A DNA stretch of 64,000 nt from Stegostoma tigrinum (Eukaryota): NCBI RefSeq assembly GCF_030684315.1, contig NC_081355.1, positions 58,947,909 to 59,011,908 of the forward strand. Reading direction: 5' to 3'. The notes below the pieces were generated by a model. The model saw nothing but the letters and a program-made list of their open reading frames with translations, was not told the origin of the DNA and searched no databases. The translations under genes were made by a program, and so were the position numbers. Below are positions 779 to 62,454 of the stretch, piece by piece (the stretch's first letter is position 1; each line of letters begins with the position of its first letter).

Positions 779-1139
779 TTGGAAAGCATTGTGGGAATTA
801 CAGCAGGATTCCTAGCAAACAGTCTATTAAAATCCATTTACTCAGTAGTGTCCATTTAAACAGCACAAAATAGCAACCAGTCTGCATTGGATAACGAAGA
901 GTCTATTTTAATAAAATGTATAAACTACATCAAGCAGGATTCATGGCCAAATCTGCATTTAGGAGAAATGTTAACAGACATGAAAGGGTTGGTTGGGAAT
1001 GGATAAGTAGTTAAATTTGGAAAAACTAAGTCATGACTGTGAGATAATGGGAACTGCAGATGCTGGAGATTCCAAGATAATAAAATGTGAGGCTGGATGA
1101 ACACAGCAGGCCAAGCAGCATCTCAGGAGCACAAAAGCT

Positions 1140-1167
1140 GACGTTTCGGGCCTAGACCCTTCATCAG
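1140..1167 (-). ncRNA. Minimal type I hammerhead-ribozyme-like motif, intact core
   Basis: Reverse complement reads CTGATGA a GGG tctagg CCC GAAA CG TC; stem III is the palindrome ACGU with no loop; stem I is only 2 bp. Confidence 0.65.
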
Positions 1168-1391
1168 AGAGGGGGATGGGGGGAGGGAACTGGAATAAAT
1201 AGGGAGAGAAGGGGAGGCGGACCGAAGATGGAGAGTAAAGAAGATAGGTGGAGAGAGTGTAGGTGGGGAGGTAGGGAGGGGATAGGTCAGTCCAGGGGAG
1301 ACGGACAGGTCAGGGAGGTGGGATGAGGTTAGTAGGTAGCTGGGGGTGCGGCTTGGGGTGGGAGGAAGGGATGGGTGAGAGGAAGAACCGG

Positions 1392-2261
1392 TTAGGGAGG
1401 CAGAGACAGGTTGGACTGGTTTTGGGATGCAGTGGGTGGGGGGGAAGAGCTGGGCTGGTTGTGTGGTGCAGTGGGGGGAGGGGATGAACTGGGCTGGTTT
1501 AGGGATGCAGTAGGGGAAGGGGAGATTTTGAAACTGGTGAAGTCCACATTGATACCATATGGCTGCAGGGTTCCCAGGCGGAATATGAGTTGCTGTTCCT
1601 GCAACCTTCGGGTGGCATCATTGTGGCAGTGCAGGAGGCCCATGATGGACATGTCATCAAGAGAATGGGAGGGGGAGTGGAAATGGTTTGCGACTGGGAG
1701 GTGCAGTTGTTTGTTGCGAACTGAGCAGAGGTGTTCTGCAAAGCGGTCCCCAAGCCTCCGCTTGGTTTCCCCAATGTAGAGGAAGCCGCACCGGGTACAG
1801 TGGATGCAGTATACCACATTGGCAGATGTGCAGGTGAACCTCTGCTTGATGTGGAATGTCATCTTGGGGCCTGGGATGGGGGTGAGGGAGGAGGTGTGGG
1901 GACAAGTGTAGCATTTCCTGCGGTTGCAGGGGAAGGTGCCGGGTGTGGTGGGGTTGGAGGGCAGTGTGGAGCGAACAAGGGAGTCATGGAGAGAGTGGTC
2001 TCTCCGGAAAGCAGACAGGGGAGGGGATGGAAAAATGTCTTGGGTGGTGGGGTCGGATTGTAAATGGCGGAAGTGTCGGAGGATAATGCGTTGTATCCGG
2101 AGGTTGGTAGGGTGGTGTGTGAGAACGAGGGGGATCCTCTTGGGGCGGTTGTGGCGGGGGCGGGGTGTGAGGGATGTGTCGCGGGAAATGCGGGAGACGT
2201 GGTCAAGGGCGTTCTCGATCACCGTGGGGGGAAAGTTGCGGTCCTTAAAGAACTTGGACAT
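1392..2261 (-). CDS. PLE ORF C-terminal part: RT thumb/linker plus GIY-YIG endonuclease (fragment)
   Basis: 289-aa ORF with Cys linker CNRRKCYTC (Neptune hallmark), VVYCIHCTRCGFLYIGET, FAEHL..ANHF (CCHH) and EQQLIFRLGTLQPYGIN. Confidence 0.9.
   Translation of the reverse strand: MSKFFKDRNFPPTVIENALDHVSRISRDTSLTPRPRHNRPKRIPLVLTHHPTNLRIQRIILRHFRHLQSDPTTQDIFPSPPLSAFRRDHSLHDSLVRSTLPSNPTTPGTFPCNRRKCYTCPHTSSLTPIPGPKMTFHIKQRFTCTSANVVYCIHCTRCGFLYIGETKRRLGDRFAEHLCSVRNKQLHLPVANHFHSPSHSLDDMSIMGLLHCHNDATRRLQEQQLIFRLGTLQPYGINVDFTSFKISPSPTASLNQPSSSPPPTAPHNQPSSSPPPTASQNQSNLSLPP
1416..1516. repeat. 39-bp tandem repeat (about 2.6 units) in the PLE ORF C-terminus
   Basis: Units start at 1416, 1455 and 1494 ('ctggtt..gatgcagt..gggg'); encodes PTAxxNQPSSSPP repeats. 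Confidence 0.8.
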
Positions 2262-2615
2262 CTGGGATGTGCGGGAGTGGAATGTCTTATCGTGGGAGCA
2301 GATGCGGCGGAGGCGGAGGAATTGGCTTACCTTAAACCTATTCTCTACTTTTGGACTCCCCTAACCTGGGAAAAAGACCTTGGCTATTCATCCTATCCAT
2401 ACCCCCCATGATTTTATAAATTTCTATAAAGTCACCCCTCAGCCTCTGATACTTCAGGGAAAAATGCTCCAGTCCTTATGACTCAAATGGTAGCCTTCTT
2501 AAAGGATTTTAACTTTCCTTTGAATACAACTTCCAGTACAGATGAAAAAGAAAAGTGTGTTTTAATGTCTTTCGTGTGGATGCATCAACTTCAGATAAGC
2601 TGAATTTAGTGGAGG

Positions 2616-23410: not shown

Positions 23411-23739
23411 GGCACGGTGGCTGAGTATCATAGCACCAGGGACCTTCTGACTGCCTCAGGTGACAGTCTGTATGGATTTCGCATGTTCTCCACATATCTG
23501 CTTGGGTCTCCTCTGGGTGCTCCAGTTTCCTTCCACAGTCCAAAGTGCTAGTCAGGTGGATTGGCTGTGCTAAATTATCCATTGTCTTCAGGGATGTGTA
23601 GGTTAGGTGTGTTAGCCATGTGAAATGCAGGTTTTCAGGGGTAGGGCGATGGGTCTGGGTGGGATGCTCTTCAGAGTGGTGTGGACTTGTTGGGCCAAAT
23701 GGTCTGTTTCTGCACTGTAGGGACTCTATGCATTCTATG
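23411..23739 (+). mobile_element. HE1-like V-SINE inserted in Gypsy gag
   Basis: ggcacggtggct head, V-domain 'ctcctctgggtgctccagtttccttccacagtccaaag', CR1-type tail 'gggccaaatggtctgtttctgcactgtagggactctatg'. Confidence 0.85.
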
Positions 23740-44046: not shown

Positions 44047-44265
44047 CCGGTGTGGAGTTTGCACATTTTCCCTGTGTCTGTGTGAGTTTCCTCCGGGTGC
44101 TCTGGTTCCCTCCCACAGTCCAAAAATGTGCAGTTTAGGTGGATTGGCTAAGCTAAATTGCCCGTAGTGCCCAGGGGTGTATGAATTTGGGTGGAATGCT
44201 CCAAGGGTCAGTGTGGACTTGTTGGGCTGAAGGGCCTGTTTCCACACTGTAGGGAATCTAATATA
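44047..44265 (+). mobile_element. HE1-like V-SINE, 5'-truncated
   Basis: 'gtgtggagtttgcacattttccctgtgtctg..ggcctgtttccacactgtaggg'. Confidence 0.85.
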
Positions 44266-46868: not shown

Positions 46869-47837
46869 GTATGTAGTACAGAAAGAGGAAAGGGGAATAG
46901 TAAGGGAAAAAATAACGTGCTGGCACAGATTAATGATTTGCTTTCCTTTCCATCCATTTGGTTCAGCTTCTAATTATGTCGTGATTTTTTTACAAATATT
47001 CAAACCAAGTTGAATAGTGCTTCCTTCATCTACAATTCATTTATAATGCTGCCTCTAGTTGTCAAGTAAGCTAGGTACTACTGAATTCACATTTCATGAG
47101 ACAATGAATTTTGAAAGCAGCTGCAAATTTAATGGAACAGAGCTTTTTTATTGGGATGATTTGATTTTAGAGTTCAACAGCTTCTTGTCAACAGTACAAG
47201 TCTTTAGAAAATGATGGAAGTAGTAATTACTAGGTGTCTACACTGGTTAAAGACACAAATGAATTAGGTAGGTGTTAGCAAGTAACTGTCCTCTCTTAAT
47301 TGTCTCAAGATGGCAGGGAAGACTTTCTGCAGAATAAGCATGTTCCTCAATTCAGTGATTACCATATAAATGAATGATGGAGAATTATATTAATGTTGGT
47401 CTGTTTATCTTAACAATGTTTCATTCAGAGCTTTCAAATGCAAAGAAACACACAAAAATGCTGAATATAATAATCCAGAATGACAGCATATGGAAACACT
47501 AGGTCTCTTTCTATTTGTAAGAATCTAAGATTAAATTTGAAAATTTCAACTTGATTAATTGTGGTACAAGCATTTTCTAAAATTTTACAATGAGTTTGCT
47601 TCTCAACTCAGAAGACAATAAAATTACTGTCTCTGCACAGAAAATTCAAGTCCAAATTTTTAAAAATCCCTGTTCAACCATTGACATTTTTCCCTTCTTG
47701 TCTGAAGGGATTGAGTCTTGCTCGGATGTGCTTTCATAGGATGCCCTGTTGGTTCTCCTATTCAAATGGCCAATCTTTGCCTGAACCCGAAGAGAGCATC
47801 ACAACTTGACTAGGAAAGACATCATAGTTGAATCCAA

Positions 47838-48006
47838 GATAGTATCAGAGATAATGGGAACTGCAGATGCTGGAGAATTCCAAGATAATAAAATGTGAGG
47901 CTGGATGAACACAGCAGGCCAAGCAGCATCTCAGGAGCACAAAAGCTTTTGTGCTCCTGAGATGCTGCTTGGCCTGCTGTGTTCATCCAGCCTCACATTT
48001 TATTAT
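47838..48006. mobile_element. PLE family A fold-back mini-insertion containing a perfect 122-bp palindrome
   Basis: Arms 47885-47945 / 47946-48006; 14-bp direct repeat atagttgaatccaa at 47824-47837 and 48005-48018. Confidence 0.92.
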
Positions 48007-48064
48007 AGTTGAATCCAAACTGATTCAAAATGAACTTCCAATTACATCACTGTACCATTACTTG

Positions 48065-48622: not shown

Positions 48623-49561
48623 TTGCTATCCACAAACATGTTATTATCTACTTTCCAACAAAAAGAGACTCTATAACTGGAACTAGAAATGTCAGAGAGC
48701 AATGAGGGGCTGTTTAAATTGATTTCTGGTTGGTGGCTTTTTTCAGCAGGTAATATCACGAGCAAGCAGCATGAAGCAAATTGCCAAAAATTAACAAGCT
48801 TAATTGATAATGAAAGTGAAGAGCATTATTTTATAACATCAGTTTGTTTTGTTAATGCTCTGATTATAAAGTAAAACTGGCCTTGCTAGCAACACCTTGG
48901 ATCCTTGAATGAAGAAATGAAAATGTTGAATTGATGGGAAGCATTGAAATATAGTGACATTAAAATGAGTTAAATCGCAGGGGATCAGCTCACAAATTCC
49001 TGCTAAATGGAGCTTAGAAAAAGCCAAGGGGACCTCCACACAACCCAATTTGCCTTGCAAATGTGCTCTATGTAAAAAAAATCCTAAATGCAAACACAGT
49101 AAAGCAATCAATATGTCTTTATTTCAAATTTGTTCACAGTTTACAATGGCCTGAACTTGTACAGTAAAAAGGATTGGAAAATGAGGGGCATTTAATCCAC
49201 AAAATCTCAGTAATTTTATTATTCCTGAACATACTGTTTTTGGTCAACATGCTGTCAATGCAGTCAAATGTGTTTTCTATGTTCTCGTGCTGTAGCAAAA
49301 TCCTGGGGCATCTCTACAGCCTTTGCAGCTTCAACAAAGGAAGTAAGCTAGTGAGACTTGCCAGACTCTTCAGAATCATCCGCCCCCTGGCTTAAGAATG
49401 TTTTGCAACCACGATTGAGTCATCTATCAGCTCAATTGTGTAGGACATTATCTTGCCTAACCTGATTTAATTTTCCATGATGGTTTCTGCTGGGCTATTC
49501 ATGCCATTGATCAAAAAGGGCATTTGTATTTGTGTTATTAAGAACTGCCGTTGCTGGAGTC

Positions 49562-49730
49562 AGAGATAACACAGTGTGGAGCTGGAGGAATACAGCAGGC
49601 CAGGCATCATCATCATCAGAGGAAGAAAGCTGACATTTCAGGTTGGGTCCTGACCCAAAACATCAGCTTTCCTGCTCCTCTGATGCTGCCTTGCTTGCTG
49701 TGTTCCTCCAGCTCCACACTGTTTTGTCTT
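49562..49730. mobile_element. Older PLE-terminus fold-back element
   Basis: 'acagtgtggagctggaggaatacagcaggc' versus 'gcttgctgtgttcctccagctccacactgt' inverted arms, meeting in hammerhead stem II remnants. Confidence 0.8.
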
Positions 49731-56834: not shown

Positions 56835-57053
56835 GAGAGATAATGGGAACTGCAGATGCTAGGGAATCCAAGATAACAAAGTGTGTAGCTGGATAAACAC
56901 AGCAGGCCAAGCAGCATCTCAGGAGCACAAAAGCTGACGTTTCGGGCCTAGACCCTTCATCCTCTCTGATGAAGGATCTAGGCCTGAAACATCAACTTTT
57001 GTGCTCCTGAGATGCTGCTTGGCCTGCTGTGTTCATCCAGCTACACACTTTGT
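56835..57053. mobile_element. PLE family A fold-back mini-element, 219 bp
   Basis: 86-bp arms 56876-56961 / 56968-57053 with a 6-nt loop; 14-bp TSD cctcttagtggact at 56821-56834 and 57054-57067. Confidence 0.93.
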
Positions 57054-57144
57054 CCTCTTAGTGGACTTACTGGTTTCATCAAGAAATCCAATGTTCACGA
57101 GTTGCTTTTACACTCTTTGATATGGAAGCTTAAATGAATTTTAT

Positions 57145-60055: not shown

Positions 60056-60906
60056 CTAGAATCGTGGGCACAGCTCAAGAATAAGAGGTCTACCTTTCAG
60101 AAGGTGATGATGAAGGTGATTTTCTCAGAAGGTCGTTAGTATATGAAGTTCTCTTGCTCTGAAAAAACAATTGAGACTGATTCATGAATTTGTTCAAGGC
60201 AGGCTTAGATAGACTTTTAATAGACAAGGCAGTCAAGAGTTCTGATTGAGGCACATGGGGAAGTGGAGTTAAGGCCACTATCAGATGCCAGGATCCTGTT
60301 GAAAGACAAAGCTGGCTCAAAGGCTAAATATGTGATAATGGGAACTGCAGATGCTGGAGAATCCAAGATAATAAGGTGTGAAGCTGGATGAACACAGCAG
60401 GCCAAGCAGCATCTCAGGAGCACAAAAGCTGATGCTTCTCTTTCGATTCCTCCTACTTCCTACAGACAAAGGGGTTGGCCTTGGGCACCTGCATGGGCCC
60501 CAGCTATGCCTACCTCTTTGTAGGTTACGTGGAACCATCCTTCTTCCGCACCTACACAGGCCCCAAACCCCACCTCTTCCACCATTACATTGACTGTATC
60601 GGCGCTGCCTCTTGCTCCCCATAGGAGGTCGAACAGTTCATCCATTTCACCAACTCCTTCCACCCCAACCTTCAGTTCACTTGGGCCATCTCCAGCACAT
60701 CCCGCGCCTTCCTGGACCTCTCAGTCTCCATCTCAGGCAACCAGCTTGTAACTGATGTCCATTTCAAGCCCACCGACTCCCACAGTTACCTAGAGTACAC
60801 CTGCTCCCACCCACCCTCCTGCAAAAATTCCATCCCCTATTCCCAATTCCTCCACCTCCGCCACATCTGCTCCCACGATGAGACATTCCACTTCCGCACA
60901 TCCCAG

Positions 60907-61737
60907 ATGTCCAAGTTCTTCAAGGACCGCAACTTTCCCCCCACAGTGGTCGAGAACGCCCTTGACCGCGTCTCCCACATTTCCCACAACACATCCCTCA
61001 CACCCCGCCCCTGCCAAAACCGCCCAAAGAGGATCCCCCTCGTTCTCACACACCACTCCACCAACCTCTGGATACAATGCATCATCCTCCGACACTTCCG
61101 CCATCTACAATCCGACCCCACCACCCAAGACATTTTTCCATTCCCACCCTTGTCTTCCTTCCGGAGAGACCACTCTCTCCGCGACTCCCTTGTTCGCTCC
61201 ACACTGCCCTCCAACTCCACCACACCCAGCACCTTCCCCTGCAACTGCAGGAAATACTACACTTGCCCCCACACGTCCTCCCTCACCCCTATCCCAGGCC
61301 CCAAGATGACTTTCCACATTAAGCAGAGGTTCACCTGCACATCTGCCAATGTGGTATACTGCATCCATTGTACCCAGTGTGGCTTCCTCTACATTGGGGA
61401 AACCAAGTGGAGGCTTGGGGACCACTTTGCAGAACACCTCTGCTCGGTGCGCAATAAACAACTACACCTCCCAGTCGCGAACCAGTTCACCTCCCCCTCC
61501 CATTCTTTAGATGACATGTCCATCATGGGCCTCCTGCAGTGCCACAATGATGCCACCCGAAGGTTGCAGGAACAGCAACTCATATTCCGCTTGGGAACCC
61601 TGCAGCCCAATGGTATCGATGTGGACTTCACAAGCTTCAAAATCTCCCCTTCCCCCACCACATCCCAAAGCCAGCCCAGTTCGTCCCCTACCCCCACTGC
61701 ATCCCAAAACCAGCCCAGCCTGTCTCTGCCTCCCTAA
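60907..61737 (+). CDS. PLE ORF C-terminal part: linker plus GIY-YIG endonuclease (fragment)
   Basis: 276 aa; VVYCIHCTQCGFLYIGET; nearly identical to 1392-2261. Confidence 0.88.
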   Translation: MSKFFKDRNFPPTVVENALDRVSHISHNTSLTPRPCQNRPKRIPLVLTHHSTNLWIQCIILRHFRHLQSDPTTQDIFPFPPLSSFRRDHSLRDSLVRSTLPSNSTTPSTFPCNCRKYYTCPHTSSLTPIPGPKMTFHIKQRFTCTSANVVYCIHCTQCGFLYIGETKWRLGDHFAEHLCSVRNKQLHLPVANQFTSPSHSLDDMSIMGLLQCHNDATRRLQEQQLIFRLGTLQPNGIDVDFTSFKISPSPTTSQSQPSSSPTPTASQNQPSLSLPP

Positions 61738-61967
61738 CCTGTTCTTCCTCTCTCCTATCTCTTCCTCCCACCCCAAGCCGCACCACCATTTCCTACCTAC
61801 TAACCTCATCCCACCTCCTTGACCTGTCTGTCTTCCCTGGACTGACCTATCCCCTCCCTACCTCCCCACCTACACTCTCCTCTCCACCTATCTTCTTTTC
61901 TCTCCATCTTCGGTCCACCTCCCCCTCTCTCCCTATTTATTCCAGAACCCTCACCCCATCCCCCTCT

Positions 61968-61995
61968 CTGATGAAGGGTCTAGGCCCGAAACGTC
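61968..61995 (+). ncRNA. Minimal type I hammerhead-ribozyme-like motif, intact core
   Basis: CTGATGA a GGGtctaggCCC GAAA CG TC; predicted cleavage after 61995. Confidence 0.65.
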
Positions 61996-62454
61996 AGCTT
62001 TGTGCTCCTGAGATGCTGCTTGGCCTGCTGTGTTCATCCAGCTTCACACTTTATTATCAAAGGCTAAATACCCTACTCCTGTTCCTAGATGCTATATGAA
62101 TCCTTTGTCCTTTATATGCTCTTGTGAATAATTAAAACCTTCCTGGTTTATGCTGTAACTGCTAAGCCCTTTCCAAGATGTCTTGAGACAAACAGGCTCC
62201 TCCAGATAAATCCAAAGTAGCCATTATAATCCTATATATGTACCCTTTAACTAGCTTCCTACTAACATAACAAAAATTCCTTTTAAGCTGTAATTACCCA
62301 AGCTCCATTGAGTTGCACTTACTGCAAGGCTGTTTACCAGTTTCCCAAACCAGATGCTTCAACTACATTTTGTTTTAAAAAATTTAATCACAACCTAAAA
62401 GTTTTACTCTTAAATTGAACCATGAAATTAATCAGACATTTTCATAGTGAAACA

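Follow-up and report, generated by a model that had tools for sequence, protein, structure and literature searches.

The stretch analysed here, a window of 64,000 nucleotides from Stegostoma tigrinum (NC_081355.1, positions 58,947,909 to 59,011,908 of the forward strand), contains a short insertion made of two head-to-head copies of the terminus of a Penelope-like element (PLE), which meet in a perfect palindrome at the predicted cleavage site of the element's hammerhead ribozyme. Judging from the sequence, this palindrome is probably a dead-end insertion of the PLE terminus, formed by twin priming on hammerhead-cut RNA followed by end-joining. We also favour, with only slightly more belief than doubt, the broader proposal that minimal PLE hammerheads, placed at the head of a capped transcript, cut in vivo within the retrotransposition complex and remove a 32-nt leader in a fraction of these complexes. 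In this proposal a dimeric protein would use two fixed sites to prime both strands of the target, and the RNA being copied would be either entirely cut or entirely uncut. Positions in the terminus are numbered from +1, the first base (A) 3' of the predicted cut after GAAACGTC. The insertion at 47824-48018 is built as follows:

47824..47837, plus strand: left copy of the target site duplication (TSD), 14 bp, occurring once where a related species lacks the insertion
47838, minus strand: single unexplained base, C on the element strand, which is neither the element's usual T at +109 nor target
47839..47947, minus strand: long arm, terminus +1 (47947) to +108 (47839), including a tail of about 45 nt and a supposed filler
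47885..48006, no strand assigned: perfect 122-bp palindrome
47944..47947, no strand assigned: AGCT of both arms, the first four bases past the predicted hammerhead cut
47944..48006, plus strand: short arm, terminus +1 to +63, its last two bases shared with the TSD
48005..48018, plus strand: right copy of the TSD

The palindrome and the TSD had both been described in the original prediction, and both were reproduced: the palindrome has 61-bp arms, 0 mismatches and 0 loop, with its centre between 47945 and 47946, and it is followed by the second copy of the 14-bp TSD ATAGTTGAATCCAA, whose first two bases (48005-48006) double as the final two of the right arm. The runner-up perfect palindromes in the window have arms of 8 bp. 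The centre also lies where it had been placed, as its AGCT corresponds to +1..+4 after the predicted cut in intact copies (after 61995 on the plus strand and after 1140 on the minus strand) and is common to the left arm (+1..+108, minus strand) and the right arm (+1..+63). Two details needed correction. The intact copy at 61995 had been quoted with four T after AGC and really has three, the copy at 1139 having four. The string gatagtatc had been taken for a 9-nt filler; eight of its nine bases are the element's own tail (+101..+108), present in many other copies, and base 47838 alone remains unexplained.

The locus is a real insertion, because an empty site exists in a related species and both flank-element junctions are found in contigs of four runs; an assembly artefact was considered and rejected. 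The empty site, with one TSD copy, is seen in one contig at a depth of 4.8 (run X10, organism C), in which the left flank runs to 47837 and the match to the right flank starts from 48019. The four junction-bearing runs belong to one study, possibly the assembly's own sample, and the palindrome is spanned by no contig. No flank reads were placed in runs X7 and X19, and X21 gave one partial read on the flank.

Other copies and signals of the same family in the window are these:

1041..2360, minus strand: 5'-truncated copy of the parent family with a GIY-YIG endonuclease, an intact hammerhead motif (cut after 1140) and a long tail
56836..57059, no strand assigned: sibling inverted insertion of the uncut class, with arms to about -26 and -41, one long and one short tail and a 14-bp TSD
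61934..61940, plus strand: reference copy, TATTTAT, a putative promoter element that resembles a TATA box and lies 30 nt before the -32 end, with conserved column counts
61964..61997, plus strand: reference copy, minimal type I hammerhead motif with the cut predicted after 61995 and the putative transcript start at 61964 (-32)

The hammerhead motif has the core of the minimal type I form, CUGANGA...GAAA with a GUC triplet, and its variation is concentrated at N7 (T in 180 copies, A in 44). Stem II has 4-5 bp, including G10.1-C11.1, and the palindromic CG (15.2-16.2) is in place; four pairs are kept in 185-196 of 196-198 copies, in which the stem II changes are one-sided only, with no two-sided compensation of note. 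An Rfam scan of the window returned no hammerhead match reaching the gathering score.

The position of the palindrome centre recurs throughout the genome. Counted by exact 26-nt junction patterns in the whole genome, AGCT at +1 forms the centre 682 times, compared with 130 for CTAG (-16), 36 for ACGT (-5) and 21 for GGCC (+28), CpG decay being allowed in the CTAG pattern and not in the ACGT pattern. The AGCT at the cut is hence used 5 to 32 times more than the three control centres, the outcome that the original prediction had hoped for from such a comparison, and its proposal of joining through the self-complementary AGCT fits these counts. Since the three other 4-bp palindromes counted are far rarer, self-complementarity alone is insufficient for the AGCT excess. 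A point missed earlier is that a perfect palindrome fits ends at +1 (4-bp overlap), +2 (2-bp overlap) or +3 (blunt).

These palindromes had also been seen as a route to self-propagating hairpin mini-elements. The 19 perfect-centre loci that we examined, all junction-selected, differ in both ends and in their TSDs and include three subfamily variants, with neither the fixed ends nor the private variants of a miniature inverted-repeat transposable element or hairpin element, and they contain neither the promoter nor the 5' part of the ribozyme. We rejected a self-propagating element: each palindrome is a separate dead-end event and not a member of a replicating family.

Genome-wide, the 5' ends of the arms form two peaks. 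An arm start was defined by two mismatched upstream bases; the terminus is very abundant, with 182,755 arms in the 3.2-Gb genome matching +1..+24 exactly. Starts at -32 number 9,356, and those around the predicted cut 237 at -3 (6 upstream classes), 295 at -2 (6), 925 at -1 (9), 3,552 at +1 (9), 712 at +2 (9) and 595 at +3 (9), or 40, 49, 103, 395, 79 and 66 per class. A breakpoint histogram peaking sharply at the cut had been proposed as a check; the ends do peak at +1, but the main peak is at -32. By hand count of the first 100 matches listed, 61 of the +1 arms have AA as their upstream pair, mostly in perfect palindromes, and 12 have GG, which is an AGC overlap with the partner; both classes leave the end ambiguous by 2-3 bases. 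Without them, +1 extrapolates to about 137 per class (95% range 94-187), compared with 79 and 66 downstream and 49 and 40 upstream, the artefact classes of these neighbouring positions being left in. The +1 peak is real and, outside palindromes, modest. Junctions that carry a linker or are joined to 5' open reading frame (ORF) sequence and end exactly at A+1 occur at loci L253, L263, L269 and L270.

The -32 end is likely a capped transcript start, because an extra G precedes it in 82 of 100 arms and TATTTAT lies exactly 30 nt upstream. Before +1 the extra G was found in 20 of 100 (hand counts of the first 100 matches listed for each), and with the overlap classes removed the figures are 25 of 34 at -32 and 8 of 27 at +1 (p=0.0008). 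Its near-absence at +1 is as expected for a 5'-OH end. Long copies have C at the position preceding -32 in 122 of 127 cases. A TSD-anchored version of the test on solo arms gave one clear G among three at -32, too few cases. Addition of a G through copying of the cap is described for an L1-type reverse transcriptase (RT) in PMC4038843, and promoters within the PLE terminal repeat, the Drosophila one TATA-less, in PMC6765202 and PMC2377424. As a separate observation, AG precedes 57 of 100 -32 arms among the matches listed, recreating AGCT at the junction, and just 2 of these pairs are perfect palindromes.

The distribution of arm starts was also determined in a sample of 426 arms, comprising 158 from 88 randomly placed 10-kb stretches, 257 anchor-selected from the first 6.2 Mb of contig C1 and 11 from the window. 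None of the unbiased counts include the 45 junction-selected loci (L001-L045), and two of the 428 remaining arms were dropped for a weak anchor. A C-first pattern set, biased by its first letter, was excluded from the histograms, the break rates and the 89 pairs described below, but contributed to the profile, to the table of upstream bases, to the fold counts and to the counts over 98 pairs. Break rates per 1000 arms at risk were 5.1 at -89..-45, 82.7 at -34..-28, 27.0 at -27..-20, 6.1 at -19..-3, 17.3 at -2..+1 and 10.1 at +2..+22. The rates are highest near -32 and rise a second time from +1; in 221 young arms this rise was significant, from 2.5 at -19..-3 to 8.7 at +2..+22 (p=0.001). Long copies through the intact hammerhead make up 90 of the 426, and uncut or re-ligated RNA may be their source.

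Inverted partners are common, being present for 176 of the 317 arms that start downstream of -45. One long-tail and one short-tail end were found in 83 of 89 inverted pairs (p=2e-18), and 64 of the 89 have a TSD of at least 10 bp, with a mode of 14-15. The short arm ends at +58..+75 in 83 of the 89, and the 3' ends of the 90 non-inverted long copies (42 short, 43 long) fall at the same two sites as those of the pairs. In vitro, according to PMC11167929, the Poseidon PLE protein of Anolis carolinensis (PAc) cleaves both strands of the target and extends them from a pair of start sites that bound the tail. We prefer twin priming over a snap-back of the cDNA because of the one-long-one-short rule and because the two 3' ends match these Poseidon start sites.

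The two arms of a pair also agree in their 5' class: 51 pairs have both starts upstream, 27 have both at -2 or downstream and 11 are mixed (p=2e-12; p=1e-9 for asymmetric junctions only). In the 27 downstream pairs the most upstream start is at -1 once and at +1 five times, including the palindrome locus, and otherwise at +3 to +24. In the 51 upstream pairs it lies after -12 in one only, leaving -11..-2 with 1 of 78 same-class pairs. This pattern amounts to two populations of templates, both of which show an edge followed by a tail of trimmed ends. Either one RNA copied twice or two RNAs cut jointly as a double hammerhead would give the shared class. Arm concordance (57 of 678 diagnostic mismatches versus 212 when shuffled) is compatible with one RNA, two RNAs of the same source or later conversion, and the rare variants shared between arms (9 versus 1.2 in shuffles) fit one RNA as well as two. 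Most inverted junctions lack a self-complementary centre, and short overlaps are present in the majority.

In L1 twin priming both target strands prime, and the inverted 5' segment is joined by microhomology inside the TSD. Here, by contrast, priming would be confined to two fixed sites 40 nt from each other, and the cDNAs made from them would overlap and form a palindrome. We propose that transcription starts from -32, inside the terminal repeat, with the hammerhead core beginning at the fifth base of the capped RNA. Cleavage at GUC^, probably in a dimer and assisted by protein, would leave a minority of the RNAs with an uncapped end at +1. The GIY-YIG endonuclease would make a staggered break of about 14 bp, the length of the TSD that is observed. 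Each target strand would then prime reverse transcription, one of them at a distal site (+97..+109) and the other at a proximal site (+62..+68), where the arms are seen to end. Both cDNAs would run off the same template end, either -32 (where copying adds a base opposite the cap) or +1. Trimming and end-joining of their 3' ends would follow, and where both carry AGCT, 4-bp pairing would produce a perfect loop-less palindrome.

At insertions in which the tail reaches +108, the target often resembles element positions +61..+72 (window 47824-47838; loci L012, L014, L016 and L026). The primer may first have paired at the proximal site and then shifted to the distal one, a possible source of the odd base at 47838.

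Several observations weigh against twin priming on hammerhead-cut RNA. Stem I has just 2 bp (pairs present in 196 and 195 of 199 copies), its third pair occurs in 2 of 199, and it falls short of the usual 4-5 bp; a 2-bp stem I is reported for the D. virilis PLE hammerhead in PMC4209133. The lowest-energy fold is a rival hairpin from -28 to +2, pairing -28..-23 with -4..+2, at -11.4 kcal/mol compared with -3.6 kcal/mol for the hammerhead monomer. About six in ten +1 arms carry the AA prefix and have an end that can be placed only within +1 to +3, and outside the ambiguous classes the +1 excess over +2 and +3 is just 1.7-2 fold or so. The 158 arms from random stretches, taken alone, show no significant step at +1 (6.4 versus 9.3 per 1000, p=0.34). 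The larger sample came by anchor selection from the first 6.2 Mb of a single contig, and the palindrome locus is among its members. Starts at +10 are as common as those at +1 (13 and 13 of 426). For PAc, the hammerhead was dispensable in vitro and no RNA-seq reads were found to end at the cut site, as reported in PMC11167929.

The rival hairpin offers an explanation in which the RNA stays uncut and the RT stalls, or a nuclease clips the cDNA, at the hairpin's foot, the ends then being joined bluntly or by a short overlap. Blunt joining of two +3 ends would give a sequence identical to the observed palindrome, and the broad tail of ends from +3 to +30 requires no cut, to which comes the predicted stability of the fold. 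But if stalling occurred at the foot, the peak should lie at +3, where 595 starts were counted, with 712 at +2 and 3,552 at +1 (some 960 of these outside the ambiguous classes). The hairpin moreover loses its -24/-3 pair in copies with the common A variant at core position 7 (paired in 159 of 197), and most cDNAs get past the hairpin and end at -32. We regard this explanation as unlikely. Somewhat less credible still is that all templates end at -32 and longer inverted repeats are shortened at joining or by later hairpin slippage, with AGCT as the favoured microhomology. Short overlaps at most inverted junctions would fit such shortening, which if symmetric would likewise correlate the two arms, and internal deletions across the stem do occur (the GG class of the -3 starts and one further row). 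It leaves unaccounted why the three other 4-bp palindromes counted, two of them nearer to the -32 end, are used 130, 36 and 21 times versus 682 for AGCT, why the pairs show a gap at -11..-2, and why solo and tandem junctions too end at +1.

We give very little weight to +1 as a second, weaker capped transcription start with an initiator-like TCAG and no ribozyme cut. TCA+1G is indeed near the initiator consensus, but among the matches listed the extra G is four times rarer there than at -32 and outside the overlap classes is near background, and no TATA-like box lies 30 nt upstream of +1. Equally remote, in our estimate, is the snap-back that the original prediction had put forward, in which one cDNA folds on its terminal AGCT and copies itself, the second arm being made from DNA. 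The often identical arms and their shared rare variants would suit it, and snap-back junctions are described for R2 in PMC11331408. However, the second arm ends at an independent priming site: its end at +58..+75 coincides with the 3' end of 42 of 90 non-inverted long copies, and a fold-back gives no reason to stop there. The self-complementary centre that it needs is also missing at most inverted junctions.

The parent family of the palindrome is, by the motif definitions of PMC8557442, a PLE of Neptune/Nematis type. A 947-aa open frame at L232 has DKG and YIDD motifs followed by VVY...YIG, and Pfam searches for the family gave RVT_1 (E=5e-5) and GIY-YIG (E=4e-4), both slightly below the curated cut-offs. 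RT and then GIY-YIG endonuclease thus lie in a single ORF, whose start was seen in other copies, as in PLEs with a C-terminal endonuclease (EN+). The definitions in that paper include a CCHH motif, with two cysteines between GIY and YIG, and for Neptune/Nematis a CX2-5CxxC linker between RT and EN. By eye, without alignment to reference PLEs, we found CxxC between VVY and YIG with histidines downstream, and the linker reads C-x4-C-x2-C. Partial-tandem terminal repeats, inverted truncated copies and a tail at one end are further PLE features of the family. The element tail leads on into the 5' leader, with an ATG about 140 nt downstream of the predicted cut. A search for the 5' ends of ORF-bearing copies returned mainly tandem and rearranged copies.

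Inverted copies, the tail and the hammerhead of PLEs are already established. Inverted 5'-truncated copies of EN+ PLEs with a 30-40 bp 'tail' (PMC8557442, PMC2377424) share with our insertions the inverted terminus, the tail at one end, the terminal-repeat hammerhead and the C-terminal GIY-YIG; here, in contrast, the insertion consists of two termini only, inversion points are non-random and bounded by -32 and +1, and one long and one short arm is a near rule. PAc Poseidon, as presented in PMC11167929, resembles our family in extension of both target strands, in two start sites downstream of the hammerhead and in the GAAACGUC^AG end of the core, and its hammerhead needs protein in order to cut. 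The PAc ORF begins within the hammerhead, unlike ours, and the linker of our family is of Neptune/Nematis type. With the minimal hammerheads of metazoan PLEs described in PMC4209133 the motif shares the CUGANGA core, an extra base before stem II, G10.1-C11.1 and a palindromic CG replacing stem III, whereas their stem I has 4-5 bp and ours 2, as in D. virilis. The HDV-like ribozyme of R2 is the closest case of a ribozyme-made RNA 5' end being read out in genomic insertion junctions, its cut site correlating with 5' junction type (PMC3774820). It differs in ribozyme and element class and in that R2 must be freed from rRNA, whereas our family likely begins transcription at a start of its own, 32 nt upstream, and most of its ends lie away from the cut. 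Non-LTR retrozymes (bioRxiv 10.64898/2026.07.22.740005) are likewise short non-coding derivatives of PLE terminal repeats, but are arranged head-to-tail with a whole hammerhead in each unit; the palindrome is head-to-head, lacks the ribozyme 5' part and the promoter and gives no sign of self-copying.

The function of PLE hammerheads is called unclear in PMC8557442, in vivo evidence for cleavage by the minimal form is stated to be absent in PMC4209133, and cleavage in vitro has been reported as weak. A second population of ends, bounded at the predicted cut and without the cap-type extra G, is the kind of in vivo trace so far missing, and any genome assembly suffices to read it. If the RNA was cut before copying, it would be rare evidence of PLE hammerheads cutting in living cells. 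The one-long-one-short rule would also explain in simple terms, through twin priming, two features of PLEs that have long seemed odd: their inverted copies and a tail found at just one end. If the broader proposal holds, the thousands of inverted mini-insertions would preserve, for any PLE family, where its RNA is capped and cut, what fraction of it is cut and where priming takes place; here the cut fraction would be about 2% at the exact base and up to about 25% with trimmed ends included. In listings of the open-licence literature we found no paper that describes twin priming in PLEs, or insertion ends whose boundary is the cut of a PLE hammerhead; subscription journals and supplementary figures may bear on this.

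Other rearrangements of the terminus were also observed. Tandem short units from +1 to about +99, joined by one extra C, occur at L104 (G000:C1:4383891-4384017), L262 and G000:C1:149364522-149364692, and likely reflect template jumping, in which the +1 end is left for the distal start site. At L269, L270, G000:C1:100410381 and 110402632, 5'-ORF sequence is fused in direct orientation to a terminus starting at +1, consistent with a jump after run-off. Junctions at G000:C1:68047475 and 98608830 carry repeats of the first 6-8 bases from +1, similar to insertions templated during joining of the polymerase-theta type.

Head-to-tail arrays of the terminal repeat and the first part of the ORF, with periods of about 166-362 bp and a hammerhead motif in every unit (L292-L294), lie at G000:C1: 49657797-49658678, 104860940-104862413, 110519952-110520695, 135852205-135853370 and 140329028-140330181. 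Such retrozyme-like arrays could supply the dimer required for cleavage. Ahead of its RT region, the parent ORF has a PTADGTP-type peptide repeat of variable number (L232:6126-8966, minus strand; L284, L286 and L302). The window holds two further members of the family, an older two-terminus inverted insertion at 49542-49730 and a 1.6-kb copy with an inverted long-tail terminus at 60334-62059. Two diverged copies of another short repeat family, probably a SINE or the end of a LINE (short or long interspersed nuclear element), are found at 23470-23728 and 44050-44260.
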